Source of the DNA: a virus
Lineage: Duplodnaviria; Caudoviricetes
Strand: one strand, 5' to 3'
Virus record (IMG/VR): IMGVR_UViG_3300013131_001394
Span: 1 to 55,206 of that record
DNA: 55,206 bases
Made by a program: the position numbers and the translations under genes. The notes below the pieces were generated by a model that made no database searches, was not told where the DNA came from, and saw only the letters and a list, made by a program, of their open reading frames with translations. Below, in pieces: positions 1,939-29,400 of this stretch; the first letter of the stretch is position 1; every line of letters starts with the position of its first letter.

Positions 1939-2300
1939 TAGTAAGAAATATTATAGGAGGCTCACATACCAGCGTAACAGGTTCAACTGCCTCAGATATA
2001 TACATTAATCCTAACGGAGGACCCATGGCAGGGTCAGTTCGTTACGTTAATAGCAATTTCGAAGTATATGACGGTAGTATGTGGAGAACAATAGGTAGTA
2101 GTTATGTTTCCGTTAACCTAAACGAAAATGCTATTAAGGCTATAGACTGGGTATTCAAAAAGATGGAAGAGGAAAACAGTATTCAAGAAATTGCCAGAAC
2201 GCGACCTGCTGTTAGTGCAGCCTACGAAAATTACATACGTGCAAGTGACCAACTTAAAACCACAATTATATTGAGTAATGATGAGCAATCCGCCAGTTAA
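1935..2300 (+). CDS. Hypothetical protein
   Basis: ATGA-coupled to the upstream gene; 121 aa with a GSVRY..FEVYDGSMW motif. Confidence 0.7.
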   Translation: MIVRNIIGGSHTSVTGSTASDIYINPNGGPMAGSVRYVNSNFEVYDGSMWRTIGSSYVSVNLNENAIKAIDWVFKKMEEENSIQEIARTRPAVSAAYENYIRASDQLKTTIILSNDEQSAS

Positions 2301-3828
2301 CCTTTCACCCTTACAAAGAGATTACGCTGTATTTTTACCAGCCTTAAGCAGTTTTTACAGCACCTATGTCAGTAAACAACAGCATGAAGAATTTGTACCT
2401 AAAGACAGAATCCCACAAGGGTTTGATCGTGGTATAGAAGGAATGAATTTCCTTAATCCTGAGCAAGGATATTTTACATACAAGTACGGACTGTTCTCCG
2501 CAGGCCATGCTCAACTAGATCTTAATAAAAGTGCTACACAAGAATCAATGGTACAACGTCGAAATCGTGCTAATACAATGATACTAGGAGATTCGGGAGG
2601 ATACCAGATAGGTAAAGGTGTTCTAAAGTTTGACTGGTTAGATTTTGAAGGACCTAAAGCAAATAAAGTAAGACATAGTATATTAGAATGGCTAGAACAT
2701 ACAGCCGACTGGTCTATGATGTTAGACGTTCCTACCTGGGCATGTGATCATGTACACAGTCCTAAGACAGGTCTTAAAACTTTTCAAGATTGCTTAGATA
2801 AAACTAAATTTAATAACAAATATTTTTTAGATAACAGATTAGGAAAGACAAAATTCTTAAATGTATTACAAGGAAGTGACTGGGAAACTGCCGAAGAATG
2901 GTATAACGGTGTCAAAGAATTTAGCGACCTTTCAGGAGAATATGCAGGCAGAGAAGCAGAAGGATGGGCATTCGGAGGCGCTAATATGTGTAAGATGGAC
3001 GTTACACTAAAACGTCTAATTACTTTACGCGAAGACGGCCTGTTAAAAGGAAAAAACTGGATTCACTTCTTAGGTACTGCTCAATTAGACTGGGCTTGTT
3101 TTTTAACCAGTATTCAACGACAACTTAGAAAGCATATTAATGAAGAAATTACCTTATCTTTTGACTGCGCCTCACCGTTTATCGCAACAGCAAACGGACT
3201 TGTCTACACGAACGCTCAACACACCACAAAGCGTTGGGCTGTTATTATGGACAAAGCCCCAGATCTTAAAGCCCTCGCAGGAAAAGACTTTCCTTTCCCT
3301 TTCGAAAGCGAAATAGGTAGAAGACTTACTGTAGGTGACATATGCCATTATGCACCGGGCATGTTAAATAAAATTGGCAAAGAAGGCAAAACTTCATGGG
3401 ATAGTTTTAGTTATGCTCTAATGATGGGCCATAATGTATACTGCCATATTGTTGCTGTGCAACGTGCTAATCAATTAATGGACATAGAAATAACTAAGTC
3501 GCAACCTAACTGGAAATTCTGGAAAAAAGTTAAAGCGGACGATAAGAGCGATGAGTATAGTGACTGGGTTCCTAGAAATGTGTTATACTTCGATAGGTTT
3601 GTAAAAGAACTTTTTGAAACTAAAACAAAACAAGAAGCATTCGATATGATAGATCAAGCAAAAGCATTTTTACTCAGTATGGAAGGTGCTAGAGCAGGCG
3701 GGTGGGCTGCTGAAAACACCTTTAATAAAATCTTTACCGTGGAAAATATAACTAAGTCTACAGAAATAGACCTAGAAAATCCAGAAGATCCTGAATTACG
3801 TAAACTGGAAGATTCACTTAATGCATAA
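2278..3828 (+). CDS. dpdA: DpdA-like 7-deazaguanine DNA transglycosylase (TGT fold)
   Basis: TGT motifs in the correct order: DSGGYQ, MMLDVP, VLQG, GWAFGG, IHFLG, SFDCAS, GHN. Lacks the CxCxxC zinc site of tRNA TGT. QueE and a T-fold gene are nearby. Confidence 0.85.
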   Translation: MMSNPPVNLSPLQRDYAVFLPALSSFYSTYVSKQQHEEFVPKDRIPQGFDRGIEGMNFLNPEQGYFTYKYGLFSAGHAQLDLNKSATQESMVQRRNRANTMILGDSGGYQIGKGVLKFDWLDFEGPKANKVRHSILEWLEHTADWSMMLDVPTWACDHVHSPKTGLKTFQDCLDKTKFNNKYFLDNRLGKTKFLNVLQGSDWETAEEWYNGVKEFSDLSGEYAGREAEGWAFGGANMCKMDVTLKRLITLREDGLLKGKNWIHFLGTAQLDWACFLTSIQRQLRKHINEEITLSFDCASPFIATANGLVYTNAQHTTKRWAVIMDKAPDLKALAGKDFPFPFESEIGRRLTVGDICHYAPGMLNKIGKEGKTSWDSFSYALMMGHNVYCHIVAVQRANQLMDIEITKSQPNWKFWKKVKADDKSDEYSDWVPRNVLYFDRFVKELFETKTKQEAFDMIDQAKAFLLSMEGARAGGWAAENTFNKIFTVENITKSTEIDLENPEDPELRKLEDSLNA

Positions 3829-4660
3829 GGCACTTGTGGTAGGCCTAGGAATGGGTCTACAGTATAAACAATGGTTAGATAAACTTTCATTTGTTGTTAC
3901 AACTGTAGATCCTGACCTAAATAAAAAGGCAGACTTTGAAGACATAGAATCATGCCTTGCTGTACATAACAAATTCGATTTAATTTATATAGGTACTCCT
4001 AACTACACGCACGAACCTATTGCTAGGAAATTGGCCAATCATACCAGAATACTACTGATAGAAAAACCAGGATTTGAAACTCACACCCACTGGTTTAATT
4101 TTGTAAAAGAATTCAACCAGACTAGAATAATGATGGTAAAGAATAATCAATATAGACCAGAACAAGATATATGGCGTGACATGGCTGCTCGCAGTGATAA
4201 AGTATATGTGGTATGGCAACGAGAAAAGGGCATACCTTCGAGCCCGTGGTTTATAGATCCAGCAAAAAGTTACGGCGGAGTAAGTAGAGACCTGATGCCT
4301 CATATGCTAAGTTATTTTACTAACTTTACAAACTATTCAAATAGCATAACAACTAGACGACAAAAAAAAGATTTACTCGACATAGGCATTGACACATGGT
4401 GTATAATGGAATATACAGCAGCAAATGATAAAAAAACTGAATGGATATTATTTACTGACTGGCAAAACGAAAGTTATGACAGTGCTAGCATCGAATTCAT
4501 AATAAACGGGCATAGTCACATATATGACTTAGGTGCGCTATGTCCTAGTGAACCTTACTTAGATATGATTACCGACTGTTTGAAAAACGTAGATAATGAT
4601 AATTTTTGGAATGAACAACTAGCACAGGATGTTTGGATACACCAACAACTAGAACTATGA
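3821..4660 (+). CDS. Gfo/Idh/MocA-family NAD(P)-dependent oxidoreductase
   Basis: ALVVGLGMG Rossmann start, TPNYTH, LIEKP, GGVSRDLMPH. Confidence 0.85.
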   Translation: MHKALVVGLGMGLQYKQWLDKLSFVVTTVDPDLNKKADFEDIESCLAVHNKFDLIYIGTPNYTHEPIARKLANHTRILLIEKPGFETHTHWFNFVKEFNQTRIMMVKNNQYRPEQDIWRDMAARSDKVYVVWQREKGIPSSPWFIDPAKSYGGVSRDLMPHMLSYFTNFTNYSNSITTRRQKKDLLDIGIDTWCIMEYTAANDKKTEWILFTDWQNESYDSASIEFIINGHSHIYDLGALCPSEPYLDMITDCLKNVDNDNFWNEQLAQDVWIHQQLEL

Positions 4661-5577
4661 AAGTAAATTTACTAGCAACAAACGGACAAGGGCATTTTTA
4701 CGAAACTGAATACGAATGTCCAGAAACCGTTGATAATGGGATAATTGTAAAAAACATAATGACTGGCGTATGTACAAGCGATGTCGCGATGATGAAGGGC
4801 GAGTTCGGTCCTCTGCCACTGCATATGCAAGGACATGAAGGTCTGGGTCAGGTTGTAAGTGTAGGCAATAATGTTTACCAAAAAGTAAAAGTAGGAGAAT
4901 ACGTTGCTACTAGAGGAGAACCTGCCTATGCCGATTACTATCCAGTTAAAGATGGGCAGTTCGTTGTCGTCCCCGAAGCACATCCTAGGTATATTATCGA
5001 ACCTGTAGCATGTGGCATAAACATCGTTGAAGGCGAGTTAATGGAAATAAAAGGACGAAGCCTTACCTTACATAATCCTAAATTGTTAATTATCGGAAGT
5101 GGGTTTTTGTCTTATATTGCATATAAAACATTAAGGCTCAACAATATAGCATATGAAATTGATGTAATAGGTAAAAGCAATTTAGATATATGGCAAAAAG
5201 AAAATGTTATTTTGCAAGATAGTCCAGATAAAAATTATGAAGTAGTCATCGTGTTAAAAGAAGGTATAAAGTTTTTAGAAAATCCAGAACTGATTAATGA
5301 AAATGGCCTACTAGTTGATGCTGTAGGTCGTAATATATCTAAAAAAGAAAGCGAAAACATGCTTTGGAAGTCTGTTACAACTAGTAGACCAAGCCCTAGA
5401 AAACCTATGTTTGACTTATGTATGGAACAAGCAGTAAAATGGATAGAATCGGATCAATTAAATGTTGATAAATTCTGGACAAGAAGTTATAATAGAACAA
5501 CAGAATGGCAACAGGCCTTCAACGATGGTTTAAACAGACCAGTAGGTTACAGCAGAGGATATATAACATGGCCTTAA
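4657..5577 (+). CDS. Zn-dependent medium-chain (MDR) dehydrogenase
   Basis: GVCTSD and GHEGLG catalytic Zn ligands, EPVACG, IIGSG. No structural-Zn Cys lobe. Start placed at the ATGA overlap 4657-4660. Confidence 0.85.
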   Translation: MKVNLLATNGQGHFYETEYECPETVDNGIIVKNIMTGVCTSDVAMMKGEFGPLPLHMQGHEGLGQVVSVGNNVYQKVKVGEYVATRGEPAYADYYPVKDGQFVVVPEAHPRYIIEPVACGINIVEGELMEIKGRSLTLHNPKLLIIGSGFLSYIAYKTLRLNNIAYEIDVIGKSNLDIWQKENVILQDSPDKNYEVVIVLKEGIKFLENPELINENGLLVDAVGRNISKKESENMLWKSVTTSRPSPRKPMFDLCMEQAVKWIESDQLNVDKFWTRSYNRTTEWQQAFNDGLNRPVGYSRGYITWP

Positions 5578-6086
5578 ACACAGAAGAACGTCAGGAAGTA
5601 GTTTACTTTACAGGGTATGAAGTAGAGCATACTATATGTCATGGCATGTTTACATTATTTGTAGTTGGAACTCCGCCGTTAGAAGAAATTTTAGAACAAG
5701 CCAAAAGAGAAAATGTTAAACAGATTTACTTTGGCACCAGTCAAAGTTTTAATCCTAAGTCACAGAGTAGCGAAGAATATAAGCCTTGGGATACTGTAAT
5801 ATTAGGATGCTTGAATGCCGGGTACTGGGTAACTTTAGATTTTGACGTTAAGCATATTGAAGGAGTTCACGATTCTGGATATTGTGAACATAACCGCTTT
5901 GTTCCTATGATTAGTGTAAAATTACCTTATATAGAACTCTTGAACTATAACGCAACCTTAAAATTAGATGATTTGACATGGGGTAAAACTAATCCCGGTG
6001 TATGGACACATCATTTACAATCATTAATGACTAGGGACAAATATACTTATTGGGATCAGTATACCCAGGATACGCAGATTACTTAA
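5568..6086 (+). CDS. Hypothetical protein in the deazaguanine cluster
   Basis: Start MALNTEER at ATG 5568 after GAGGA, overlapping the MDR gene end; 172 aa. Confidence 0.75.
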   Translation: MALNTEERQEVVYFTGYEVEHTICHGMFTLFVVGTPPLEEILEQAKRENVKQIYFGTSQSFNPKSQSSEEYKPWDTVILGCLNAGYWVTLDFDVKHIEGVHDSGYCEHNRFVPMISVKLPYIELLNYNATLKLDDLTWGKTNPGVWTHHLQSLMTRDKYTYWDQYTQDTQIT

Positions 6087-6352
6087 TCTCTGCTACCAGG
6101 ATAATACTTATTAGGGCCGCCGAATTTTTGACTTTTAATGTAACGGCCTCTTTGAGTTTTTCCGCTACCTTTAACACCTTGTTTACCTGTTCCGTCTGTA
6201 TGGTCACTATCATGTTTCAGCCAGCCGCGTCCTACACATTGAGCATATCTAACATTACTCAATCTAGCACGCCCAACGGAACATTCGCTTCTTTTAGGGG
6301 CAGGTAAGGTCTTTTCAGATAAAATGTCGGAAAGTAGTTCAGAAATTTTCAT
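6083..6352 (-). CDS. Small basic late protein, possibly a virion internal protein
   Basis: 89 aa, K/R/G-rich, N-terminus MKISEL; TAAATA 7 nt upstream of the ATG. Confidence 0.65.
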   Translation of the reverse strand: MKISELLSDILSEKTLPAPKRSECSVGRARLSNVRYAQCVGRGWLKHDSDHTDGTGKQGVKGSGKTQRGRYIKSQKFGGPNKYYPGSRD

Positions 6353-6359
6353 AACAAGT

Positions 6360-6365
6360 TATTTA
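6360..6365 (-). promoter_or_regulatory. T4-like late promoter core TAAATA
   Basis: Minus strand reads GATAAATAacttgttATG. Confidence 0.6.
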
Positions 6366-6407
6366 TCAAACTTTTCACTCAAAAATAAAAATTTTACACC
6401 AGAGTGC

Positions 6408-6436
6408 TTGACAGCATAAATTATTTTAACTATACT
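6408..6436 (+). promoter_or_regulatory. Sigma70-like promoter
   Basis: TTGACA(6408-6413)-17 bp-TATACT(6431-6436); AAGGAG RBS before GTG 6462. Confidence 0.85.
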
Positions 6437-6461
6437 TACTATACAAAAAGGAGAATTACCA

Positions 6462-6650
6462 GTGATTACTACTAAGATTACTAAAAAAGATGCCGCAGTT
6501 TCAGGAAGCGCCGAAGAGCGTTTATTTAAATTGCTCGAAAGCATGGACTGGAAACTTTGGGAAATTTATCAAATTATGAAGGCTCAAACAGAAGATACTA
6601 AAAAACCTGCAATCAAAACTAAACTAACCAAAAAAACTGAAGAAGAATAA
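6462..6650 (+). CDS. Hypothetical protein
   Basis: GTG start with AGGAG RBS; 62 aa; TAATG overlap with the next gene. Confidence 0.7.
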   Translation: MITTKITKKDAAVSGSAEERLFKLLESMDWKLWEIYQIMKAQTEDTKKPAIKTKLTKKTEEE

Positions 6651-7030
6651 TGGAAAAATCTATGATTTGGGTTACCTTTAATAAGGAAGGTATCCATATG
6701 TATCCAGCAGCAGCATCTGATCCTAAACTTAAAACAGGTGATGAGTATGATGTTAGTTTTTTAGGAACACCACATCGTCATATCTTTCATTTCAAAGTAT
6801 ATATTGAAGTATTTCATGATGATCGTGATATCGAGTTCATTCAATTTAAACGGTGGTTGGAGAAGTTATACAGCGAAGGCACACTACAACTTAACTACAA
6901 ATCCTGCGAGATGATTAGTCGTGATCTTTACGCTACCATCACAGCAAGATATCCAGGTCGCGAGATTTGGATTTCAGTAAGTGAAGACAACGAAAATGGT
7001 TGCTTCATTAAATTTCCATCAACAAACTAA
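6650..7030 (+). CDS. dpdL: QueD-like T-fold protein, DpdL-type (putative CDG decarboxylase)
   Basis: LGTPHRHIF matches LxxxHRHxF in place of QueD CxxxHGH; also EGIH, SCEM, VSED; 126 aa. The DpdL motif is recalled from the literature. Confidence 0.7.
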   Translation: MEKSMIWVTFNKEGIHMYPAAASDPKLKTGDEYDVSFLGTPHRHIFHFKVYIEVFHDDRDIEFIQFKRWLEKLYSEGTLQLNYKSCEMISRDLYATITARYPGREIWISVSEDNENGCFIKFPSTN

Positions 7031-7045
7031 TACTTAAAAACTAAT

Positions 7046-7276
7046 ATGGCACTATCTGCTAGTATTCAAAAAACCCTTCGTTTCAAACCAGAAGTTCACA
7101 AAATCTTCGATGATCTAGAAGCATGGCACGATCATTGCAGGTTTGAACTGATGGACTTTAATCCTGCCCATCTTTACAAATCTAGAGAGTGGAAAGAGTT
7201 TAACAAAACTAGGGAGTATCTAGAGCGTAAAGCAAGACGCGAGTCTAAACAAAACAAAAAGAGCCATAATGGCTAA
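7046..7276 (+). CDS. Hypothetical protein
   Basis: 76 aa ORF within the operon, overlapping the GT start. Confidence 0.7.
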   Translation: MALSASIQKTLRFKPEVHKIFDDLEAWHDHCRFELMDFNPAHLYKSREWKEFNKTREYLERKARRESKQNKKSHNG

Positions 7277-8339
7277 AATCTTTCTAGTAGACTTAGAAAG
7301 TGTAGAGACCAGATATACAGGACAATGGAAAAGTCATGTTCCCGAAATTCTCAAGACTAAAGGACATGAGGTTCACGTTATCTCTGGTCCTACGGATATT
7401 CCTAGTGCCACTACTCCTGGCGCTTTTCTCAACTTTGGTGGCACTAACATATATAAGTCTAGTCAAGTTGAACAGATGGGCAGATTATTTTGCCAGGGAT
7501 CCGTTAAACCTGGCGACCATTTTATTTTTACTGATGCTTGGCATCCGGGGATCATAAACTTAAAATATATGAGTGAACTATTACAGACGCCTGTAAAAAT
7601 TCACGCATTATGGCATGCCGGATCATATGATCCTCAAGACTTTTTGGGTAGGCTTATTGGAGATGCTCCGTGGGTAAGACACGCTGAGAAAAGTTTCTTT
7701 CACGCTATAGATCATAACTACTTTGCCACTAACTTCCACATTAATATGTTCGGTAAGAACTTGTTAGGCAAAGGCGGATACGATCCATCAGCTAATATAA
7801 CTAACAAAGTTGTAAGATCTGGATGGCCAATGGAATATATGGAGTATACATTATCTCCATATAAGGGTATGAAGAAACGTGACCTAATTTTATTTCCACA
7901 TCGTATAGCACCAGAGAAGCAAGTTGAGATATTTAGAGATTTGGCATTACTACTTCCTCAATATGAGTTTGTAGTATGTCAAGATAACGCACTAACCAAA
8001 CATGAATACCATACCTTACTAGGACAATCTAAAATGGTGTTCTCAGCTAATCTACAGGAAACACTAGGTATTAGTTGTTATGAGGGTGCCCTAGTAAATG
8101 CTATTCCTTTTGTTCCAGACAGGCTAAGTTATACTGAGATGTATTACGAACAGTTCAAATATCCTAGCGAATGGACTCAACACTGGGATTTATATCTTGT
8201 CCATCGTTCAGATATTTGCTATACTATCATTACTATGATGAATAACTACGAGAAACACGTTCATTATATAAGTAAACAAGCACAAGATTTAACTGAACAT
8301 TTTTTTTCCGCTAACCAACTATTCGATAACCTAAACTAG
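7269..8339 (+). CDS. GT-B (GT4-like) glycosyltransferase
   Basis: FPHRIAPEK, QETLGISCYEG (E-x7-E), VPDRLSYTEM. Confidence 0.85.
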   Translation: MAKIFLVDLESVETRYTGQWKSHVPEILKTKGHEVHVISGPTDIPSATTPGAFLNFGGTNIYKSSQVEQMGRLFCQGSVKPGDHFIFTDAWHPGIINLKYMSELLQTPVKIHALWHAGSYDPQDFLGRLIGDAPWVRHAEKSFFHAIDHNYFATNFHINMFGKNLLGKGGYDPSANITNKVVRSGWPMEYMEYTLSPYKGMKKRDLILFPHRIAPEKQVEIFRDLALLLPQYEFVVCQDNALTKHEYHTLLGQSKMVFSANLQETLGISCYEGALVNAIPFVPDRLSYTEMYYEQFKYPSEWTQHWDLYLVHRSDICYTIITMMNNYEKHVHYISKQAQDLTEHFFSANQLFDNLN

Positions 8340-8348
8340 GAGTTCACT

Positions 8349-10385
8349 ATGAAACTCAAAACACTTGCAACTTGTATAGCATTGGCCTATGGTTCCCTTC
8401 ATGCACAAGTACAAACTGGAGCATGGCTAACTACTGAATATGATAGAGGTAGAACTTTAAGTTCTATTAATGCTGCAACGGCATATTCCAGAGGATTTAC
8501 CGGTAAAGGTAGCACTATTGCTATTATTGATTCAGGCATTGATTTAAAATCACCAGAATTTCAAAATAGAATTAAGGCTGTATTTGATTTTACCAGTTCC
8601 GGATCTGCTAACGATACATTAGGTCATGGCACCCATGTTGCTGGTATTGCTGCTGCTGCAAAAAATAATATAGGAACTCATGGCGTAGCCTTTAATGCAG
8701 ACTTGCTAATTGCAAAGGTTACCACAAGCGGATTAGTTACAATGGCTACAGCAAACAAAGCTGTCGCTTGGGCTAATAGTTATAATGCAGATGTAGCTAA
8801 TCTAAGTTTAGGCTTTAGCCTTAAGCAATCTACAATTGCAGCTCAGTTAGTAAGCCCAGGTGTTTACAAAACAAATGTAACTAACACAGGAAAATATCTA
8901 GGTGGACTAGACGTTAATAGTTGGAAAACTGCTACTAACGGTGAAATGGTATTAGTTGTTGCCGCAGGTAATGATTCTACACCATGGTCAAGTTCGTTGA
9001 GTCAACTTGCAACTGCTGTTGATGCGAATGGTAACCTAATGTTGGGTGGTAGAGTAATTGTTGCAGGAAACTGGAACAGTCAAGGTGTAAGAAAAACTAC
9101 TACGGTTAATGGTAGACCTGTTTTTACTACTGCATATCAAACAGGTCCTAATAATAATGGTGCTGCCCAACTATGTATGGTAATGGTAGGCACAGTGTGT
9201 CAAGACAAATTTAAGGTTAGTGATTTTTACCTACTCGCACCTGGAACTGGTATAACAAGCACTTATCCTACTACTATTAACAAAAACGGTATGTTGACGT
9301 TAACAGGCACTAGCCAGGCTGCTCCAGCTATATCAGGTGCTGCTGCTATCATTAGAGAAATGTGGCCACAAATGACTGGGTCTAATGTTGTTAAGTTATT
9401 ATTAGTTACAGCAAATAAAAACATAGAAGGTTATAATGTTGTGGCACATGGTCAAGGACTTTTAGATCTTGATAGAGCAACCAGACCGGTAGGTAGTCTA
9501 GGTATTCCTACAACTGGAAGATTGTCAGGGCCACGTAGTCAATCTGTCGATCCTATATTGGTTACAGGTGGTTCCGCTAGCACAGGTGGACTGGGTAGTA
9601 TCGTTGTTTTAGATGACTTTGATAGAGATTTTGGGGTTAAAGGTAAAACATTCACAGCGCACAAGATTAGTAAGGAATTCAACCCTAAACAAGCATTTAT
9701 GCCATATGAATCAAAAAACAACTACAGTCTTTTCAATAACTATAATCAAAGATTACATGCAGAAGCAGCGGATATTTCTTTGGCAGTTTACCAAGACACA
9801 AATTCTGCTTTACAGGTGCCTGGTATGATTGAGATGTCTTATAAGGTAAAAGACTTTAAGTTTACTACAGCACATTTTACTGAACAGGCAACATGGCTTA
9901 ATAACAGCCTGCTAGGTATGAATAGAGAAAGCAATACATTAGTATTCGGCCTAGCCTATGAAAAAGATGTAGGTTCAAATACAAAAACATTCATTAGTGC
10001 CATGCATGGAACCACTAGTATTAAATCGTATAGCGATAAAGTTTCAGGGTTGAATACTGCTTACAGTTATAGTTGGAACGCAGGGCTTGAGCACAGTTTA
10101 AATAAAACAAACTCAATAGGCTTTATGGCATATCAGCCAGTGACTGTTTATAACGCACAGGCCAATGTTAATATGCCTGTAGGACTAGATCAAAACTTTA
10201 ATGTTATTCAAGGTACTAGAGCGAATCTAGCGGCAGATGTTAAAGAAACAAGGCTAGGGCTTTATTATAAACTTAGCGAAAAGTACACACAAGCAAGTGC
10301 ATTTATTGAAACAAGGCAAAATTACAGAGGACAAGATGGCATTAGAGACCACGCAGCAGGACTACAATTTACCCGTCAATTTTGA
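8349..10385 (+). CDS. Secreted S8 subtilisin-like protease with a C-terminal beta-barrel-like domain
   Basis: Signal peptide MKLKTLATCIALAYGSLHA; triad IDSGID, GHGTHVAG, GTSQAAP; oxyanion AAGN; amphipathic strands ending in LQFTRQF. Confidence 0.9.
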   Translation: MKLKTLATCIALAYGSLHAQVQTGAWLTTEYDRGRTLSSINAATAYSRGFTGKGSTIAIIDSGIDLKSPEFQNRIKAVFDFTSSGSANDTLGHGTHVAGIAAAAKNNIGTHGVAFNADLLIAKVTTSGLVTMATANKAVAWANSYNADVANLSLGFSLKQSTIAAQLVSPGVYKTNVTNTGKYLGGLDVNSWKTATNGEMVLVVAAGNDSTPWSSSLSQLATAVDANGNLMLGGRVIVAGNWNSQGVRKTTTVNGRPVFTTAYQTGPNNNGAAQLCMVMVGTVCQDKFKVSDFYLLAPGTGITSTYPTTINKNGMLTLTGTSQAAPAISGAAAIIREMWPQMTGSNVVKLLLVTANKNIEGYNVVAHGQGLLDLDRATRPVGSLGIPTTGRLSGPRSQSVDPILVTGGSASTGGLGSIVVLDDFDRDFGVKGKTFTAHKISKEFNPKQAFMPYESKNNYSLFNNYNQRLHAEAADISLAVYQDTNSALQVPGMIEMSYKVKDFKFTTAHFTEQATWLNNSLLGMNRESNTLVFGLAYEKDVGSNTKTFISAMHGTTSIKSYSDKVSGLNTAYSYSWNAGLEHSLNKTNSIGFMAYQPVTVYNAQANVNMPVGLDQNFNVIQGTRANLAADVKETRLGLYYKLSEKYTQASAFIETRQNYRGQDGIRDHAAGLQFTRQF

Positions 10386-10614
10386 TTATGATACAGAATG
10401 GCCCATGTCAGATTATTATGATGACGGTCCTATTACCATCGATGATCCTATTGTAGAATATAAAACTTTTGAACAGGTAAGTTGGTGGAAACTTAAACAA
10501 ATGTTAGAACGGTGGCCTGCTATGCATAAAAGTTGGCAGGCATTTATTATTGACTATAATGTATGCTTGGCTACCTTAAGAGCCGAGGAACAACACGATG
10601 ACATCCCTTTCTAA
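10336..10614 (+). CDS. Hypothetical protein
   Basis: ATG 10336 after GAGGA (alternative start 10405); ends in acidic DDIPF. Confidence 0.55.
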   Translation: MALETTQQDYNLPVNFDYDTEWPMSDYYDDGPITIDDPIVEYKTFEQVSWWKLKQMLERWPAMHKSWQAFIIDYNVCLATLRAEEQHDDIPF

Positions 10615-11071
10615 ATTTTTTCTTAACACTCTAGAACGCATGGGTAGGAAACGTATTGTTCTAGATAGAGAAAGTTCAGAACCTTATCTAGAACGTTATT
10701 ATGTCTTTTTAAAAGATAGAGATACATTTCCTTTTAATATCTTCATTCATAAATTTTTAAAATCAGATCCAGATGATGTCCACGATCATCCCTGGTCTTA
10801 TGCTACACTTATTCTCAAAGGCGGATACTGGGAATTCGTTCCTGTATTCAACGAACAAGGAGAAAAAGTTGCAGAAACAAAACATTGGCGGGCACCTGGT
10901 CATTTTCGTATTAGTCCTGCTACTAGTTTTCATCGTATCGAACTAGAGCCTAACGTAGACTGCTGGACTATGTTTATGCCAGGACCTAAGCGTAAGGAGT
11001 GGGGCTTCCTTGTAAATAACGAGTGGATTCATAACGAACAATACTTAGAGGAGAGACGAAATGCCGCGTAA
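10598..11071 (+). CDS. Cupin-like protein
   Basis: HDHPW...ILKGGYWE...FHRIEL metal-binding cupin pattern. Confidence 0.7.
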   Translation: MTSLSKFFLNTLERMGRKRIVLDRESSEPYLERYYVFLKDRDTFPFNIFIHKFLKSDPDDVHDHPWSYATLILKGGYWEFVPVFNEQGEKVAETKHWRAPGHFRISPATSFHRIELEPNVDCWTMFMPGPKRKEWGFLVNNEWIHNEQYLEERRNAA

Positions 11072-11321
11072 GAAAAAAGAGGTTGTAGTAGAAACAGAGA
11101 AGAAATATTTCGTAGACGGACATAATGATGTTCAGGAATATTACGAGCCTGTTAAGCAATTTGAAATAAATTGGGAAAAGATTGCTGCTGATGTTAAAGA
11201 AGCAGCAAAAATGGTAGAAGCAAAGTATGAACAGGATGAAGGTCCGTTGACTGATAGTCAAATTGCTCAAATCAAATACTCAGCACCTAAACCTAAAAAG
11301 ACTAAAAAAACTAAAAAATGA
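11061..11321 (+). CDS. Hypothetical protein
   Basis: 86 aa; GAGGAG upstream of the ATG. Confidence 0.7.
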   Translation: MPRKKKEVVVETEKKYFVDGHNDVQEYYEPVKQFEINWEKIAADVKEAAKMVEAKYEQDEGPLTDSQIAQIKYSAPKPKKTKKTKK

Positions 11322-11330
11322 GAATTTAAG

Positions 11331-11732
11331 ATGCACATGTCAAGTAACAAAATTTTTGACGGCCCTGATGAGTTGGAAGATTCACATCCGCCGTGGACAG
11401 GAATATATCGTGAAGACTTTCATGTTATAGTTTATAGAGACAAATACCCTGTAACAGAAGGACATTTACTGTTTGTTCCTAAGTATAACTCAATCAGTAT
11501 TTTAAATCAAGCATTTGAAGATGCTGTCAGATACGGTAAAAAGCAAGTTAAAGACGGCAATTGGGATGGATTCAACATAGGACTAAACTACGGAGAAGTC
11601 GCTGGTCAAACTGTAAATTGGCCTCACATACACCTTATTCCAAGACGCAAAGGTGATGTAGACGATCCTATAGGTGGCGTACGTAATATTATCCCAGGTA
11701 AAGGTAATTATAAAAAAACTAATCAAACTTAG
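11331..11732 (+). CDS. HIT-family nucleotide hydrolase
   Basis: DKYPVTEGHLLFVPK, GFNIGLN, AGQTVNWPHIHLIPR. Confidence 0.9.
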   Translation: MHMSSNKIFDGPDELEDSHPPWTGIYREDFHVIVYRDKYPVTEGHLLFVPKYNSISILNQAFEDAVRYGKKQVKDGNWDGFNIGLNYGEVAGQTVNWPHIHLIPRRKGDVDDPIGGVRNIIPGKGNYKKTNQT

Positions 11733-12618
11733 TTATTGCCTGATCTCCTTCATTGCTACAGACTATCATACCGCATTTATGGGGAGTATTAGGCGGATGC
11801 CATCCATCATGCCATATATTTCCTAATGATCTATTGTTACAAGTAGCACCAGATACCCAACCTTGATGTCCTATGTACAAGGTTTCAATTCCCATATTGC
11901 ACATCTTACCTGTATAACTAGGATTGCTATTCAACATATCTTGATATCTACCATGCCATGTTGTTTCTTCAAAATATTCTTTTTCAGACACTAGAGTTTT
12001 TTCTCTAGGCGGAGGACTATTTTTTAACCAAGGCTTAGGTTCTTCCATTAAAGTTAATTGTTCATTGGTATATGAAACAAACAACCCAGCACTTGTATCA
12101 GCATTTATGTATAATGCCTGCTTATTAACCCATATACCGTGACGTTCTTCAAAATCGCTTATTCGTTTTATATCTTGATCAAACCTAGAAGGATGTACAG
12201 GTGCATTTAGGTATATAGGCTTGTCATTTTTAACAAATAACTGAACTATATAATCCATTAGAGATTCATTTTGCCAGTAATGATAGGTTAAATGTATGCT
12301 ATCAACATTAGGTTCGATAGCCCACCAGTCCATCCATAATTTACCACCGTTAGTATGCAAAGTTAATTTGTTTTTATCTGCCTTACATGATTTTAAGATG
12401 GTAACAATATCATTTAAATCTAAAGGTTCACCGCCATCAATTGTCCATTCTATAGTTCTACCTAGGTCTAAATAATTGTTTACTATCAAATCGGCTATTC
12501 TAATATATTCTTTAGTTTCAGGAGGTTCACCACCGCCTCTAAACTTTGTAGGACAATAATCACATTGATAGGAACAATAATCATTCAAGGCCCAGGTTAT
12601 TCTAGTTATATTGTTCAT
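11719..12618 (-). CDS. Radical SAM protein with a C-terminal Cys-rich (SPASM/twitch-like) region
   Basis: CSYQCDYC, GGEP, TNG; C-terminal CNMG...ATC...CGMIVC. Confidence 0.85.
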   Translation of the reverse strand: MNNITRITWALNDYCSYQCDYCPTKFRGGGEPPETKEYIRIADLIVNNYLDLGRTIEWTIDGGEPLDLNDIVTILKSCKADKNKLTLHTNGGKLWMDWWAIEPNVDSIHLTYHYWQNESLMDYIVQLFVKNDKPIYLNAPVHPSRFDQDIKRISDFEERHGIWVNKQALYINADTSAGLFVSYTNEQLTLMEEPKPWLKNSPPPREKTLVSEKEYFEETTWHGRYQDMLNSNPSYTGKMCNMGIETLYIGHQGWVSGATCNNRSLGNIWHDGWHPPNTPHKCGMIVCSNEGDQAITKFD

Positions 12619-12624
12619 ATTGTG

Positions 12625-12652
12625 TTGACAAACCTAAATAATAATGTATAAT
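12625..12652 (+). promoter_or_regulatory. Sigma70-like promoter for queE with an internal TAAATA
   Basis: TTGACA(12625-12630)-16 bp-TATAAT(12647-12652); TAAATA at 12635-12640; GAGGT RBS. Confidence 0.75.
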
Positions 12653-12672
12653 TACTTATCACGAGGTCATTT

Positions 12673-13521
12673 ATGAGTAAACTTAAAGTATCAGAATTGT
12701 TTTACAGTGTGCAGGGCGAAGGTCGCTATATGGGCGTTCCCAGCATCTTCCTTCGCGTGTTCGGTTGTAATTTTACCTGCGATGGTTTTGGAATGCCTAG
12801 AGGAGAAAAAACTAATGAACGAAACATTATTGCAGATCGTATTGGAGAGTTTAAGCAGTATAAAGATTTACCACTTGTTCATTCCGGTTGCGATTCTTAC
12901 GCTAGTTGGGATCCTAGGTTCAAAGACTTTTCACCAGTATTGGAAACAGACTCAATTGCGAAAACAATTAGTGAACTTCTTCCAAAGAAAGAGTGGGACA
13001 GGGAACACCTAGTTATTACAGGCGGTGAACCTTTGTTAGGTTGGCAACGCAGTTATCCAGATCTACTGGAACACGAAAAAATGAAGGGTTTGAAAGAAAT
13101 CACTTTCGAAACCAACGGCACTCAGAAATTGAGTAAAGAATTCAAACATTATTTAGGTGAGTGGACTGCTACTAATTGGGATAGAGAGATTACCTTTAGT
13201 GTTAGTGCTAAATTACCTAGTTCAGGTGAAGCATGGGAAGAGGCTATTCAACCCGACGTAGTATGCGAATATGAACAAGTCGGTTGGACATATCTTAAAC
13301 TAGTTGTAGCCACAGAGCAGGATATAGAAGATGCACTACGGGCTATAGAAGAATATAGATCAGCAGGCTTTAAAGGTGAAGTATACTTGATGCCGGTAGG
13401 TGGTGTAGAGAGTGTTTATAGTTTAAATAATAAGAATGTAGCATTAGCCTGTATGAAGCATGGGCTAAGATATAGTGATAGGCTTCAGGTGCCGCTCTTT
13501 AAGAACGCTTGGAATACATAA
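12673..13521 (+). CDS. queE: 7-carboxy-7-deazaguanine synthase QueE (radical SAM)
   Basis: ELFYSVQGEG, FLRVFGCNFTC...GCDS, VITGGEP, FETNGT, SAKL, YSDRLQ. Confidence 0.92.
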   Translation: MSKLKVSELFYSVQGEGRYMGVPSIFLRVFGCNFTCDGFGMPRGEKTNERNIIADRIGEFKQYKDLPLVHSGCDSYASWDPRFKDFSPVLETDSIAKTISELLPKKEWDREHLVITGGEPLLGWQRSYPDLLEHEKMKGLKEITFETNGTQKLSKEFKHYLGEWTATNWDREITFSVSAKLPSSGEAWEEAIQPDVVCEYEQVGWTYLKLVVATEQDIEDALRAIEEYRSAGFKGEVYLMPVGGVESVYSLNNKNVALACMKHGLRYSDRLQVPLFKNAWNT

Positions 13522-14337: not shown

Positions 14338-14589
14338 ATGCGGCCTTTGCCGGCTCCTGAAACCTTAAACATATATCTGCTAGTAAATCAGAATGGTATG
14401 AAGTTTAGTCCAATTCAAGGTTCGACTAGCGGAAACCAGTATATAGGACTCGGATTTTATCTATCTAGGCAAGAAGCAGAGCATCAAAGAACATTAGAAT
14501 ATCTCAAATACAAAGATACAGGTGATTATAATAGGTTCCATATCTTTGAATTAGAAATTCCTAACCCGGCATATATAAATGAAAAGTAA
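14338..14589 (+). CDS. Hypothetical protein
   Basis: 83 aa ORF abutting the upstream stop codon. Confidence 0.65.
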   Translation: MRPLPAPETLNIYLLVNQNGMKFSPIQGSTSGNQYIGLGFYLSRQEAEHQRTLEYLKYKDTGDYNRFHIFELEIPNPAYINEK

Positions 14590-15196
14590 TTCTTCGGTAA
14601 TAGGATTATTTCCCATTCCTTTAGGCATATATAATATAAACAGATTATTTTATACTGAAGAGAATTCTTTTAAAGAACAGTGTTTTAAAACTAGAAGATT
14701 TATAGGAACGAATAGTATTAGTAATAATACATATATTCTAAATTCTAAAGAAATGATAGGAATAAAAACATTTATAGAAACTAGTATAAATCAATTTTTA
14801 GAAGAAAGCGATCCATTTCCTGACCACACATCGTTGTATATAACACAATCATGGTTTACATTTACCGAAAAAGACCAGCACCATCATATTCATAACCACC
14901 CCAATAGCTATATTAGCGGAGTTCTTTATTTTGATGTTGATTATCCAAAAGATAAAATATTTTTTAAAAATCCAAGAATACGCGATATGATGATAGAAAA
15001 AAATAATTACACACCGTTTAACAGTGAGGAATGGTCAATACCTATTCGTGCAGGGAGTTTACTATTGTTTCCGTCTTATATAGAACACTTTGTAAAAAAC
15101 TATCCCGGCGATAAACCACGGATAAGTTTAGCCTTTAACACATTTGTAAAAGGACAGTTAGGATCAGAACATACACTAACAAAAGTAAAATTATAA
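14579..15196 (+). CDS. 2OG-Fe(II) oxygenase (TIGR02466-like)
   Basis: HNHPNSYISGVLY, LLFPSYIEHFV, RISLAFN. Confidence 0.85.
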   Translation: MKSNSSVIGLFPIPLGIYNINRLFYTEENSFKEQCFKTRRFIGTNSISNNTYILNSKEMIGIKTFIETSINQFLEESDPFPDHTSLYITQSWFTFTEKDQHHHIHNHPNSYISGVLYFDVDYPKDKIFFKNPRIRDMMIEKNNYTPFNSEEWSIPIRAGSLLLFPSYIEHFVKNYPGDKPRISLAFNTFVKGQLGSEHTLTKVKL

Positions 15197-21625: not shown

Positions 21626-21804
21626 ATTTCAAAGTCGGTGATAAAGTAATCAAGGTATCTGGTTATGCATGGCCTGGTATCGTTGTCAGTGTATTTGATA
21701 CACTAAAAGGCGAGCGCCGAGTCGTAGTGGAATGTACAGTACCTGAAGTAGCAGGTGCTTTACACATTTATAACGAATCTCAACTTAAGTTGCACAATGA
21801 CTGA
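21622..21804 (+). CDS. DfrB/R67-type (type II) dihydrofolate reductase homologue
   Basis: F.VGD.V.K.SG.AW.G.VV...VE....GALHIY aligns by eye with R67 [20 protein letters not shown]...VES...GSVQIY; overlaps the thyA start. Confidence 0.75.
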   Translation: MNFKVGDKVIKVSGYAWPGIVVSVFDTLKGERRVVVECTVPEVAGALHIYNESQLKLHND

Positions 21805-22678
21805 ACGAGTCTATCTAAATACTCTAAAAGACATTTTAGAGACTGGTGAGGGAAGACCCGATCGTACAGGTGTAGGCACAATCGGTAAGTTCGGTCTTCA
21901 AATGAAGTTTGATCTTACACTAGGATTTCCTGCTATTACAACTAAAAAACTAGCATGGAAGTCTGTTGTAAGCGAACTACTATGGTTTATCGAAGGTAGC
22001 GGTGACGAGTATAGACTTAAAGAAATTCTATACGGTTATCGTTATGATCCACGTAATACTATATGGTCTGACAATGCTAGTGCTCCTTACTGGACCAGCA
22101 AGAAAGTAGCAAGACATGCCGGGGATTTAGGTCGTATATATGGTGTTCAATGGCGTAGATGGCGAAAACCTTTGATCAGAGTAAACAAGGTTATTCTTGC
22201 TAACCACGATCAGTTATTAGAACTTGTAGACGGGTTAAAAAAAGATCCTTACAGTAGACGTCATATTATATCTGCATGGAATCCAGGTGAACTAGAACTA
22301 ATGGCATTACCCCCATGCCATATGATGGCGCAATTTTATGTAAGTAAAGCCAGAAAACTAAGTTGTCAGATGTATCAACGTAGTGCAGATATGTTTTTAG
22401 GAGTGCCTTTCAACATTGCCTCATATGCTTTATTCACCCATATGCTGGCGCAATGCTGTGACTTAGAAGTGGGAGAACTAACTATTACGCTAGGTGACGC
22501 TCACATTTATATAAATCACGCAGAACAAGTAAAAGAGCAGTTATCAAGAACTACTCTACAGTTGCCTACATTAAAATTAAATTCGGCAGTAAAAGATATT
22601 ACAAAGTTTACAATGAACGATATATCTTTAGTTGATTATACGCACCACTCTGCGTTAAAAGCGGAGATGGCAGTTTAA
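21797..22678 (+). CDS. thyA: Thymidylate synthase ThyA
   Basis: DRTGVGT, SELLWF, SRRHIISAWNP, MALPPCH, YQRSADMFLGVPFN, GDAHIY; start at ATG 21797 (ATGACTGA overlap). Confidence 0.96.
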   Translation: MTERVYLNTLKDILETGEGRPDRTGVGTIGKFGLQMKFDLTLGFPAITTKKLAWKSVVSELLWFIEGSGDEYRLKEILYGYRYDPRNTIWSDNASAPYWTSKKVARHAGDLGRIYGVQWRRWRKPLIRVNKVILANHDQLLELVDGLKKDPYSRRHIISAWNPGELELMALPPCHMMAQFYVSKARKLSCQMYQRSADMFLGVPFNIASYALFTHMLAQCCDLEVGELTITLGDAHIYINHAEQVKEQLSRTTLQLPTLKLNSAVKDITKFTMNDISLVDYTHHSALKAEMAV

Positions 22679-26486: not shown

Positions 26487-29400
26487 TTATAGTTCCTCTA
26501 GCGGCTCATCGTCTTGATCTGTTAGGGCAAATCCTCCCTCATTAGTTAGGGCAACATCACCTCCATAGTAATACTTATCTGGTAATTCTGCAGGTCTTGC
26601 CTGTAAGAATCTAGCAGGTACAGTGGTACTGGTCATTAATGAATAGGTAGATGTCGAGTTAACTGTATCATTCCATACATCTATAGCATCAAATTCTCTT
26701 TTTACAATTACTAATTTAATGCTTTGTTGTACACCTTCTTGTAAATTTAAATTGAGATACTGGTTCTGTATAGTAAATTCTGGTGGTACATAATTAATAC
26801 CACTATACTCATACCCGTTAAATGCATCATACTTGTCTGAATTAGTATAAATCCAGACTTGATTAGTTGATGTAATTACATAGGCTGTGCCTAACACTGT
26901 GGTAGTAGGAAGATATGATACTTCGGCTAACCATCTATTATTCCTTGCTTCTTGTGAATTTTTAATATTATTAAGGATTTCGGTATCTGTATCAATTAGG
27001 TTATTATAGTTACCTACCCAATAATCTAACCCTCCTTGATCGGGATATCTATTTAAATATCTCAGATAATAATTTGTAACTGTATTTGCATATGATGCAG
27101 GATCTGGTACTGTGGGTGATAACGGTGCACCATAATCGGGCGCATTGGGTATAGGCAAGAAATAAGGTGTGTCGTAGGTGAATTCTATATCCTGTTTGAA
27201 AGTGGCATTTTTATTTAAAATACGTCCACCATAAACTACTGTAACTTGATCCTCTAACTTTATAGGATTAGGTATAGAAGTCGTTGTACTAATTTCGTTT
27301 AGTGTAATACCATCATTAGTTACAGTGCTATATGATACAGGATTACCTAAATAATCAGTCGCTAGCGTAGATGTAGTAAATGACAATGTACTAATATAAT
27401 AAGTTGTGCTATTAGCCAGTGTATAGTGTGTCTGTTTTAATATTCTTTCAGAATACGGTACTGTTTGTTGCGATCCTTGATCAATAACTTTGGTATTCTC
27501 ATGCGAATAAAAACTAGGAGCAGTTCCTAAAGTTGCTCTCCTTAACTGACTTAACACATTAGATCCTACTTTGAAAAACTCAATACGTTCACCGTCTACA
27601 AGAATTACGCCAGGAAGATTCTTTTCAATATCCGGACTGGTCAACACATCTGCATTGTCAACATGTATTTCTGTATCATATACACTTAGTGGTCTGGTTA
27701 GATATGTAGAATTTTCCTTACTTAATCTCTTAAAATGTGTTCTATGGAAAATATCATGGAATATTCTATAACCTAATATAGTTGATGCTAATTTTTCGCT
27801 ACTAAATGTTATAATTGTAATCTCATTAGTTTCATTATGATAGAATTCATCTGAAATTTCTACTGTTACAGAATCATCTAATATCTCATAATCATAATGA
27901 TTTACTAAAGGTATACCGTCAACTATTACCCATACATAATTGCTATCAAGGGCAGGTCTACTTATCACATATCTTCTAGACGGATTACCACGGAATCGCT
28001 CTGTACGCATCAGCATATCGTCGTGATTATTGTAGGTTATAACTTTCAATTCATAAGGGTATGTAAACGATCCTGGATTTATGATTGTCAATTGACTACC
28101 AACAATATCATAATCGTATGTATATGAACCTTCCTGCGCTACAGCAGCAATTGCTATCACATCATCCTTAACTAATGGAACTAAAATATTATATGTATTA
28201 GCACCTGCTGCACTGTAATCAAAACCTCTCCTTAATTCTTTTCCATTTAGGTACACTCTAACCTGACTTAATGATCCGTAATTTACACCAGTTGTATTAA
28301 GTGTGTAAGCGGTAACTAAAGAATTTATAACTTTAAAATAACTTATATCAGGAGGTCTTAGGTATCTACGGGTACCGTTTTGGTTAACTTCAACAATTGT
28401 CTGTGCTACAACAGGTTCTATTATTCCCGGAGGATTCGCCAATGTCCAAGATGTTTCCGAAACATTTGTAACTTCTATAATTTCTTCATTTATTTCATTA
28501 AAATATCTTTGTGCTGTACCGAAAAACCATGCTGTAACGGTAGAAGTAGTAGTATCTACCAAATTATATACATTAACAGCAGCCCTGTTACTATTTTGAT
28601 TGGCCACAGTAAGCATGTATCCGTAATCAGTTGTAGTGGTAACTTCACTTATCGCAATGCCATTAACAGTAACATATGCACTCTTAACTGTACCAAATTG
28701 CGCAAGACTTACTAATTGAACTGTGCTTGTGCTACCTGTAAAACTTGTGGTATCTATAACACCTGCTTCTTTAAAGTCTCTACCGCCTCCTACACTAACA
28801 ATACTCACTCCTAATATACCTTTTATGGTTTGAGGAGGAACAATTATTTCATTCAATGTCCAATTAATGTTAAACTCGGTACTGGTTGTAAAATTAGTTG
28901 TAGAGTTATAGGTCATTAACCTGTTTTCAAAAGTTACCACTAGGCTGGAACTATTAGGAGGAGTAATACTTAATTGTCTGGTACTAGTTGATCCGGGGTA
29001 GATAACATAATAACTATTAACTACCACAGGCGCACCTTCAGGATGCTTGGTATAAACATTGATACCTACGCTTTGATTAATTTCACCTGGAACTAATTCT
29101 TCTGGAGCATAAGTGTGATTGGCACTGATAAATGACTCTCCATCTATAGTAATATCTTCAGGATTTATTCCTAGGGCTGCTACTCTTGTTCCAGTCGTCC
29201 AGCCGCCACCTTCTATAGCACTGTCTAAAATAGTAGTCTGTGTATCATATGACCAAAACTCTATACTAGCGATGCTAGTAGTATTTGTATATGTTCCTTC
29301 TACGAAAATAGTAGATATTGTAGCAGTTAACGGTAATAGGGTAGCAGTTGTAAATGTCACAGTACGAGCACTAGTGTTAACAGATTGAACTCGCGGATTA

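Follow-up and report, generated by a model that had tools for sequence, protein, structure and literature searches.

A PA5oct-like freshwater jumbo phage carries a DpdL-type 7-deazaguanine DNA-replacement module with a conserved candidate glycosyltransferase gene

A 7-deazaguanine module beside a DNA polymerase gene

The stretch of DNA analysed here, which we call the window, is the whole of IMG/VR record IMGVR_UViG_3300013131_001394, a viral sequence of 55,206 bases that originated from lake-water metagenomes and makes up an estimated 15% of a genome. The phage is a PA5oct-like freshwater jumbo phage with a DpdL-type 7-deazaguanine DNA-replacement module. Among the core genes of this module, dpdA3, dpdL and queE, lie a gene for a predicted glycosyltransferase (GT), a pair of dehydrogenase genes and a gene for a protein of 172 amino acids (aa) that we call X. 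An initial annotation had read positions 2278-13521 as a 7-deazaguanine DNA-modification region, and the DpdA3, DpdL and QueE-like identities given below bear this out. The genes that it named are all present as open reading frames (ORFs), with their translations, at or near where it had placed them; it had passed over genes for a subtilase, a cupin, a HIT-family protein and a second radical-SAM protein within the same stretch.

The left 17 kb of the window is syntenic with the Pseudomonas jumbo phage PA5oct, and the two share the order split family-B polymerase (PolB), gp170, gp168, gp167, gp166, gp162 (QueE) and exonuclease. The window's module spans 11.8 kb, compared with 5.3 to 9.7 kb in relatives, and because it is the longest it carries the most inserts.

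The dpdA3 gene (2278-3828, + strand) encodes a DpdA3-type DNA guanine transglycosylase of 516 aa. The protein had no match in Pfam (none to PF01702 at an E value of 0.01 with hmmscan), PHROG or NCBIfam and none in the PDB by sequence or profile search, and only folding gave its identity: the predicted structure has the (beta/alpha)8 barrel of the tRNA-guanine transglycosylase (TGT) fold. Two residues, D105 (in LGDSGGYQ) and D296, are invariant across 61 relatives and presumably form the catalytic aspartate pair of TGT enzymes. The protein aligns with PA5oct gp168 along 98% of its length at 41% identity. PA5oct QCG76197.1 is given as DpdA3 in supplementary table DS1 of Cui, Hutinet et al. 2023 (PMC10516641), and we equate this accession with gp168 because the numbering is consecutive and is anchored by QCG76199.1, whose sequence in the published alignment is that of gp166. 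The relation to the prototype DpdA3 of phage phiST (CGPG_00065) is moderate, as hhalign with the window-family alignment returned a probability of 76.6% and an E value of 2e-5 over only 84 columns. The prototype itself needed HHpred for its recognition, and DpdA3 activity was not reconstituted in Escherichia coli (PMC10516641). In metagenomes, 6,601 of 8,000 scored candidates matched the family at an E value of 0.001 or below, on contigs of up to 393 kb, and the family has 921 representatives at 50% clustering.

The dpdL gene (6650-7030, +) encodes a QueD-like T-fold protein, the proposed decarboxylase of 7-carboxy-7-deazaguanine (CDG). The DpdL signature LxxxHRHxF, which replaces the CxxxHGH of QueD (PMC10516641), is present in the window as LGTPHRHIF, and the protein is 57% identical to PA5oct gp166, 56% to ACP17 gp125 and 32.5% to phiST CGPG_00067. 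For comparison we used related loci, taken as the best 80 of 209 viral contigs whose DpdA3 is 67 to 85% identical to that of the window; these are close relatives, they include several near-identical loci, and they are not independent of one another. Every motif string printed for their T-fold homologues keeps LxxxHRHxF. Two T-fold variants, only about 35% identical to each other, alternate in the dpdL slot, and both carry the motif (LENEHRHMF versus LGTPHRHIF). This was observed in L005, L012, L023, L024, L038, L039, L041, L045, L054, L066, L068 and L077, and the choice of variant does not go with the occurrence of the dehydrogenase pair.

The queE gene (12673-13521, +) encodes a QueE-like radical-SAM enzyme, the predicted CDG synthase (phrog_2076, "QueE-like," E 5.4e-52), with 32% identity to PA5oct gp162; all five NCBIfam QueE models match it below their cut-offs, at 44 to 57 bits against 200 to 300. 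FolE had no match in the window. It was found in three of five larger related records, which yielded PTPS/QueD in two of five, and it lies inside the module in 24 related loci. Full-length QueC was found in none of four records, one of which had two matches confined to the last 60 model positions.

In the published route, FolE, QueD and QueE convert GTP to CDG, and DpdL and DpdA3 then yield 2'-deoxy-7-deazaguanine (dDG) (PMC10516641). That paper models DpdL as acting on the free base and reports that dpdA plus dpdL from phiST and from ACP17 yielded no dDG in E. coli. Its table DS1 lists DpdA3, FolE, QueD, QueE (QCG76203.1) and DpdL (QCG76199.1) for PA5oct. The core of DpdA3, DpdL and QueE has been published before, as a set predicted to make dDG and with PA5oct among its bearers, so the initial annotation went too far in taking the whole pathway for an undescribed one. 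What survives of that claim is the GT and the dehydrogenase pair, which figure in no described deazaguanine pathway; the extension of the DpdL/DpdA3 core by a GT, X and sugar enzymes is undescribed in the literature searched.

A glycosyltransferase gene that accompanies dpdL

The gene at 7269-8339 (+) encodes, judging by the predicted fold of its product, a GT4-like retaining GT-B glycosyltransferase with two Rossmann domains. The protein had no match in Pfam (PF00534, at an E value of 0.01), PHROG or NCBIfam and none in the PDB by sequence or profile search. In one neighbouring Atlas cluster 29% of the members carry PF00534, and UniProt labels the homologue in ACP17 a family 1 domain protein. 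Residues R212, K217, E264 and E272 are the same in all 35 sequences compared; presumably the first two are the donor-binding R/K pair and the last two form the EX7E motif.

We defined a complete module as a locus that spans DpdA3 to the exonuclease, which gave 32 modules. The GT is encoded in all 32, and also in all 49 loci with at least 4.5 kb of downstream sequence. X, DpdL, QueE and a conserved 76-aa protein encoded between dpdL and the GT gene (7046-7276, +; no family match) are each present in all 32 as well, the cupin in 31, the second radical-SAM protein in 16, the HIT-family protein in 6, the two dehydrogenases in 2 and the subtilase in 1.

A tblastn search of 50,697 cultured-phage records (threshold for a GT match, E 0.01) returned 23 records for the GT and 28 for DpdL. 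In 18 of the 28 DpdL-bearing records the GT match and dpdL are no more than 3 kb apart, and there were five GT-like matches in the other 50,669. The co-occurrence in related genomes that the initial annotation had set as a check is therefore strongly seen with the GT; the dehydrogenases, as described below, are rare in close relatives. The 18 records fall into six groups and comprise 11 PA5oct-likes, ACP17 (two records), X1, BUDD, BCSR5, Phosso and BUCT-ZZ01. The GT gene adjoins dpdL in the PA5oct-likes, ACP17, Phosso and BUCT-ZZ01 and is 1.5 to 2.8 kb from it in X1, BUDD and BCSR5. According to table DS1 (PMC10516641), ACP17, BUDD and BCSR5 have DpdA2 and PA5oct has DpdA3. The GT genes of PA5oct and ACP17 are never named in the supplement of that paper.

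The Gfo-MDR-X cassette and neighbouring genes

Three overlapping genes follow dpdA3. The first (3821-4660, +) encodes an accessory Gfo/Idh/MocA NAD(P) oxidoreductase (PF01408, 29.1 bits against a cut-off of 24), 25% identical to PA5oct gp123; a homologue in locus L091 also matches the C-terminal domain PF22725 (33.6 bits against 27). The second (4657-5577, +) encodes an accessory zinc-type MDR dehydrogenase (PF08240, 38.6 bits against 23.5, E 1.3e-9), 32% identical to PA5oct gp122. In the PDB it matched zinc-type alcohol dehydrogenases at 1e-6, with 155 sequences of this type at an E value below 1, in the N domain only. By eye, EKP and GGx3Dx3H can be found in the Gfo translation and GHEGLG and EPVACG in the MDR translation; we take EKP and GGx3Dx3H, and GHE and EPxxC, to be the catalytic motifs of the respective families.

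The third gene (5568-6086, +) encodes X, in which E18, E20, D91, D134, D135, N142 and W146 are invariant. X is 42% identical to PA5oct gp121 and 31% to ACP17 gp122; in ACP17 it occurs without Gfo and MDR, directly upstream of DpdA2. The universally conserved partner in the module is X and not the dehydrogenases that the initial annotation had put forward. Loci with Gfo and MDR have an X that shares 68 to 80% identity with that of the window and forms a distinct sequence subtype; the median in the other loci is 42%. X had no match in Pfam, PHROG, NCBIfam or the PDB, and a Pfam scan of 37 family members gave chance-level matches only. A lead from the Atlas, which would place X in a "glycosyl hydrolase catalytic domain" family, scored 0.75, below the level at which such leads are trusted. 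We also rejected three small proteins as homologues, namely, the product of the phiST gene between those for DpdL and DpdA3 (CGPG_00066), a 177-aa "glycosylase" of Phosso and a 174-aa neighbour in BUCT-ZZ01, with hhalign probabilities of 0.14 to 0.23%. A search for longer fused forms of X found none, which is weak evidence, and prediction of a complex of DpdA3 and X scored 0.00, an outcome that gives no answer and is evidence neither way.

The overlaps are as the initial annotation described them: 8 nt between dpdA3 and the Gfo gene (ATGCATAA), 4 nt between the Gfo and MDR genes (ATGA, given an MDR start at ATG 4657) and 10 nt between the MDR gene and that for X. The 4-nt and 10-nt overlaps are kept in homologues. 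Contigs from two other lake samples span 3583-4193 (dpdA3/Gfo) and 4605-5121 (Gfo/MDR) with zero differences, so these two junctions are not assembly artefacts. The trio lies directly after dpdA3 in five loci, L002, L005, L077, L091 and L092, whose DpdA3 is 40 to 85% identical to the window's; L091 and L092 were found through MDR and are more distant (49% and 40%). In all 11 PA5oct-like genomes the order is gp123-gp122-gp121, that is, Gfo, MDR and X consecutively, 26 kb from dpdA3. Full-length cultured-phage matches by tblastn, 11 for Gfo and 11 for MDR, were all in these genomes; for MDR there was also one partial match, to an uncultured fecal phage, that covered 22% of the query (E 6e-3). 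In L091 the Gfo and MDR genes are separated by one for a SulP-family permease (6799-8004; PF00916, E 4.2e-49), which might mean that the substrate is imported.

Several other genes occupy the space between the GT gene and queE. An accessory insert at 8349-10385 (+) encodes a subtilase of family S8 (678 aa; PF00082, E 2.3e-36) with a signal-peptide-like N terminus, which is found in 2 of 81 loci. It is encoded between the GT and the cupin, weakly resembles mycosin and autotransporter proteases, would hardly be expected in a DNA-modification module and is probably unrelated to the DNA chemistry. The cupin-type protein (10598-11071, +; phrog_4786, labelled "cysteine dioxygenase," E 1.8e-39) has homologues in 104 phage records, mostly mycobacteriophages, and no PA5oct-like or ACP17 record was among the 40 matches listed, so that the protein is not a specific mark of deazaguanine gene sets. 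Next come accessory genes for a HIT-family nucleotide hydrolase/transferase (11331-11732, +; PF01230, E 1.6e-8) and the second radical-SAM protein (11719-12618, -; PF04055, 29.8 bits). The latter lies beside queE on the opposite strand and has weak viperin-, MoaA- and QueE-like NCBIfam matches, far below the cut-offs. Just past queE is a gene for a 2-oxoglutarate-Fe(II) oxygenase (14579-15196, +; PF13759, E 3.3e-22; phrog_81), seen in 5 of 81 loci, and further downstream one for thymidylate synthase (21755-22678, +; phrog_160, E 1.1e-108).

The initial annotation had a second promoter driving dpdL. A promoter-like site (6408-6436, +; TTGACA-17-TATACT, 11 of 12 consensus matches) does lie in the 560-nt gap before dpdL, and another (12625-12652, +; TTGACA-16-TATAAT, 12 of 12) precedes queE. 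Such sites total 34, compared with 40.5 +/- 7.2 in shuffles, so this part of the annotation is no more than suggestive.

To survey related modules we clustered their 213 non-core ORFs and scanned the representatives against Pfam. A gene of the UDP-glucose/GDP-mannose dehydrogenase family directly follows the GT gene in 19 loci, of which 8 are complete modules. Loci of the L022 type have a PfkB kinase and a cytidylyltransferase-like gene, and L005 has a second GT1. A MazG-like gene occurs in 23 of the 32 complete modules, phosphoribosyltransferase (PRT) genes in at least 11 loci and also in BUCT-ZZ01, and S-adenosylmethionine (SAM) synthetase in three. Examples of UDP-sugar dehydrogenase, PRT and MazG-like genes between the GT gene and queE are found in L023 (11771-12592), L019 (11692-12378) and L054 (13575-13919). 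The same scan found no UDP-sugar dehydrogenase, PfkB/cytidylyltransferase, second GT1, FolE, MazG, PRT or SAM synthetase in the window.

Upstream, the module begins just after PolB, as the initial annotation had it. The C-terminal part of the split polymerase (25-1146, +; phrog_262, E 1.4e-75; PF00136, E 9.9e-19) is syntenic with the split polymerase gp173/gp171 of PA5oct. The PA5oct polymerase is split by a homing-endonuclease gene (L001, 8009-9691), and the window begins within the C-terminal part (1-1146). Between PolB and dpdA3, a conserved 245-aa protein (1201-1938, +; phrog_12062, unknown function) is possibly a sliding clamp: the clamp that had been thought probable here is favoured by 34% identity to a Phosso gene labelled "sliding clamp" by its depositors and disfavoured by the label of PA5oct gp170, 37% identical, which is annotated "structural protein."

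The window also encodes baseplate and tail genes, a late sigma factor and SbcCD, and a single ORF of 4,572 aa (26487-40205, -) lies amid the tail and baseplate genes. Megablast of the module region against cultured phages gave no match. Seventeen public runs match the window, all as contigs and with no RNA run among those listed; assembled contigs of this kind cannot show base modification.

From gene set to DNA base

The closest measured system is that of phiST, whose DNA contains 302,000 dDG per million nucleotides and no dG (PMC10516641, Table 1). The two systems share FolE, QueD, QueE, DpdL and a TGT-fold DpdA3 (FolE and QueD here coming from relatives of the window), the LxxxHRHxF motif in DpdL and a module beside polymerase genes, and no full-length QueC was seen. 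A MazG-like gene is found in the phiST module, as it is in most complete modules related to the window. They differ in DpdA3, which has 516 aa in the window and 259 aa in phiST with a weak profile relation between them, and in the extension: phiST has no Gfo or MDR match and no X homologue and, as the only DpdL phage with measured DNA, no GT match at an E value of 0.01. Phages can therefore make dDG without the GT, which seems to be an extra step. Plain dDG in phiST is a measurement, whereas the window's module is known from its genes.

With PA5oct the window shares the syntenic locus, the Gfo-MDR-X trio and the set of DpdA3, FolE, QueD, QueE and DpdL. The proteins are 25 to 57% identical, however, and the trio, which overlaps dpdA3 in the window, lies elsewhere in the PA5oct genome. 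In PA5oct DpdL, F replaces the R of the motif, and homologues of the window's cupin, HIT, second radical-SAM and subtilase proteins were not found in the two PA5oct loci compared. PA5oct DNA is reported to resist restriction enzymes with G in their sites (PMC12191111).

We propose the following scheme. FolE and QueD, present in relatives, would convert GTP to 6-carboxytetrahydropterin (CPH4), QueE would convert CPH4 to CDG, and DpdL would turn CDG into a 7-deazaguanine-type base, which DpdA3 would exchange for guanine in phage DNA. The GT might then transfer a sugar from a nucleoside diphosphate (NDP) sugar to the deazaguanine, either in DNA or just before insertion. The translationally coupled Gfo and MDR, with X, may tailor the sugar or its donor by oxidation or reduction at a sugar carbon, and in sister lineages a UDP-sugar dehydrogenase or other sugar-activating genes would take their place. 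The sugar would then differ between lineages, as expected for an antirestriction mark in an arms race. On the gene content, a glycosylated deazaguanine as the final base in the DNA, with a sugar particular to each lineage, seems to us somewhat short of probable. The broader proposal, that PA5oct-like phages, ACP17-like phages and many uncultured jumbo phages have glycosylated 7-deazaguanine in their DNA, made by a GT4 enzyme travelling with dpdL and by swappable sugar cassettes, is a shade more tentative. That the dehydrogenases make a hydroxyl handle for the sugar, as the initial annotation imagined, is conjecture.

The nearest precedent would be the alpha- and beta-glucosyltransferases of T4, which have the GT-B fold and are not among the best 50 fold matches of the window's GT. 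They transfer sugar from an NDP-sugar to a modified base, 5-hydroxymethylcytosine (hmC), as protection against restriction (PMC13216743), and we propose a comparable role here. Unlike hmC, the base in question is an analogue of a purine, one for which no hydroxyl handle is known, and DNA as the acceptor is here a proposal. In vertebrate tRNA, QTMAN and QTGAL are reported to add mannose or galactose to the 7-deazaguanine derivative queuosine after TGT insertion. Their substrate is RNA, however, and it is the cyclopentenediol side chain of the queuosine that bears the sugar. This side chain is beyond the window's module: QueC, QueF and QueA were not seen there. MshA, BshA, sucrose-phosphate synthase and tetrahydrobiopterin glucosyltransferase are only 9 to 14% identical to the window's GT, and these GT4 enzymes belong to thiol, sugar or pterin metabolism, in contrast to its DNA-modification context. 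We found no report of a glycosylated deazaguanine in DNA in the open literature, though one elsewhere may have been missed. All sugar-decorated DNA bases in the literature searched are pyrimidines, namely, the glucosyl-hmC of T-even phages and the thymidine derivatives of SP-15 and Pbunavirus.

A number of observations weigh against a glycosylated base. The closest structural neighbours of the GT act on fructose-6-phosphate, inositol phosphate, malate and glucose-6-phosphate, and no DNA glycosyltransferase was among its best 50 fold matches. By tblastn, a GT match was absent from ten DpdL records in six groups (RHph_I1_18, Bakedbeans, Ahp1, D479, MA9V-3 and five Cellulophaga records). The tightest linkage is that of the GT gene with dpdL, and since DpdL is modelled on the free base, a small molecule is at least as good a candidate for the acceptor as DNA. 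Plain 7-deazaguanine offers no hydroxyl for a sugar, and no hydroxylase specific to this gene set was identified; the cupin was considered for that role and set aside, its homologues being common in unrelated phages. The PRT, MazG-like and HIT genes of related modules hint at nucleotide-level chemistry. Among the 58 loci whose downstream flank is 2.5 kb or longer, Gfo and MDR are present together in 3 and absent as a pair from 55, and they were not found in the recorded parts of four larger relatives that are 44 to 65% complete. No identification of the PA5oct base, and no chemical datum for any GT-bearing phage, was found in the literature searched.

These points allow other readings. The DNA may contain plain dDG, as in phiST, with the GT, X, Gfo and MDR encoded in the same cluster of early genes but acting elsewhere, for example on a virion protein, a metabolite of the host or a glycan of its envelope. 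No gene beyond the DpdA3/DpdL/QueE set is needed to explain the dDG of phiST, the structural neighbours of the GT use small-molecule or glycan acceptors, most relatives do without Gfo and MDR, and the module is a hot spot of unrelated inserts (subtilase, Bax1-I, endonuclease VII and SulP permease). We nevertheless regard this reading as fairly unlikely: the proximity of the GT gene to dpdL is kept in six phage groups with differing gene orders and DpdA subfamilies, GT-like matches are nearly confined to DpdL-bearing records (18 of 23), X lies directly upstream of the ACP17 dpdA gene, and ACP17 dpdA plus dpdL were insufficient in E. coli. Overlapping with the other alternatives, and a touch less likely than plain dDG, is the idea that Gfo, MDR and X are an independent cassette of polyol, cyclitol or sugar metabolism that landed beside dpdA3. 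The distance of the PA5oct trio from dpdA3, the permease gene between those for Gfo and MDR in L091 and the rarity of the pair in close relatives all speak for it. Against this, X alone is fixed in the complete modules and also stands beside DpdA2 in ACP17, the trio recurs at the same spot, coupled to dpdA3, in the five loci named above, and the full-length cultured-phage matches to Gfo and MDR are all in PA5oct-likes, which carry the deazaguanine set. The dehydrogenase pair is thus accessory and rare in close relatives, yet its placement is nonrandom.

The least likely of the alternatives, in our view, is that the GT and X act on a free-base, pterin or nucleotide intermediate and the final base is free of sugar. 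The sugar may then serve as a temporary handle, or the GT may contribute to making a nucleoside or nucleotide form, and modification may be partly prereplicative, through a 7-deaza-dGTP pool. Consistent with this are the linkage of the GT gene with that for DpdL, which is modelled on the base, the tetrahydrobiopterin glucosyltransferases among the GT fold matches (5zes and 9v0l, rank 33 to 35), the PRT and MazG-like genes of related loci together with the HIT gene in the window, and the replacement of 100% of G in DpdA3 phages (PMC10516641), which is unusual for a postreplicative exchange. On the other hand, phiST makes dDG with no detected homologue of the GT or X, the window has neither PRT nor MazG, and a TGT-fold DpdA is universally present.

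If the proposal of a glycosylated 7-deazaguanine is true, it would be the first case of a purine analogue that carries a sugar in a genome, and would extend the chemistry of DNA by a new class. Such a base would also bear on the failure of DpdA plus DpdL in E. coli, on the attack on PA5oct by nucleases that sense hypermodified DNA and on the metagenomic jumbo phages, in which relatives of this DpdA3 and GT number in the thousands. Cultured phages open to test are PA5oct and 10 relatives, ACP17, X1/BUDD, BCSR5, Phosso and BUCT-ZZ01. The finding would be relevant to phage therapy candidates such as PA5oct, to the sequencing and cloning of such DNA and to enzymes for labelling G positions.

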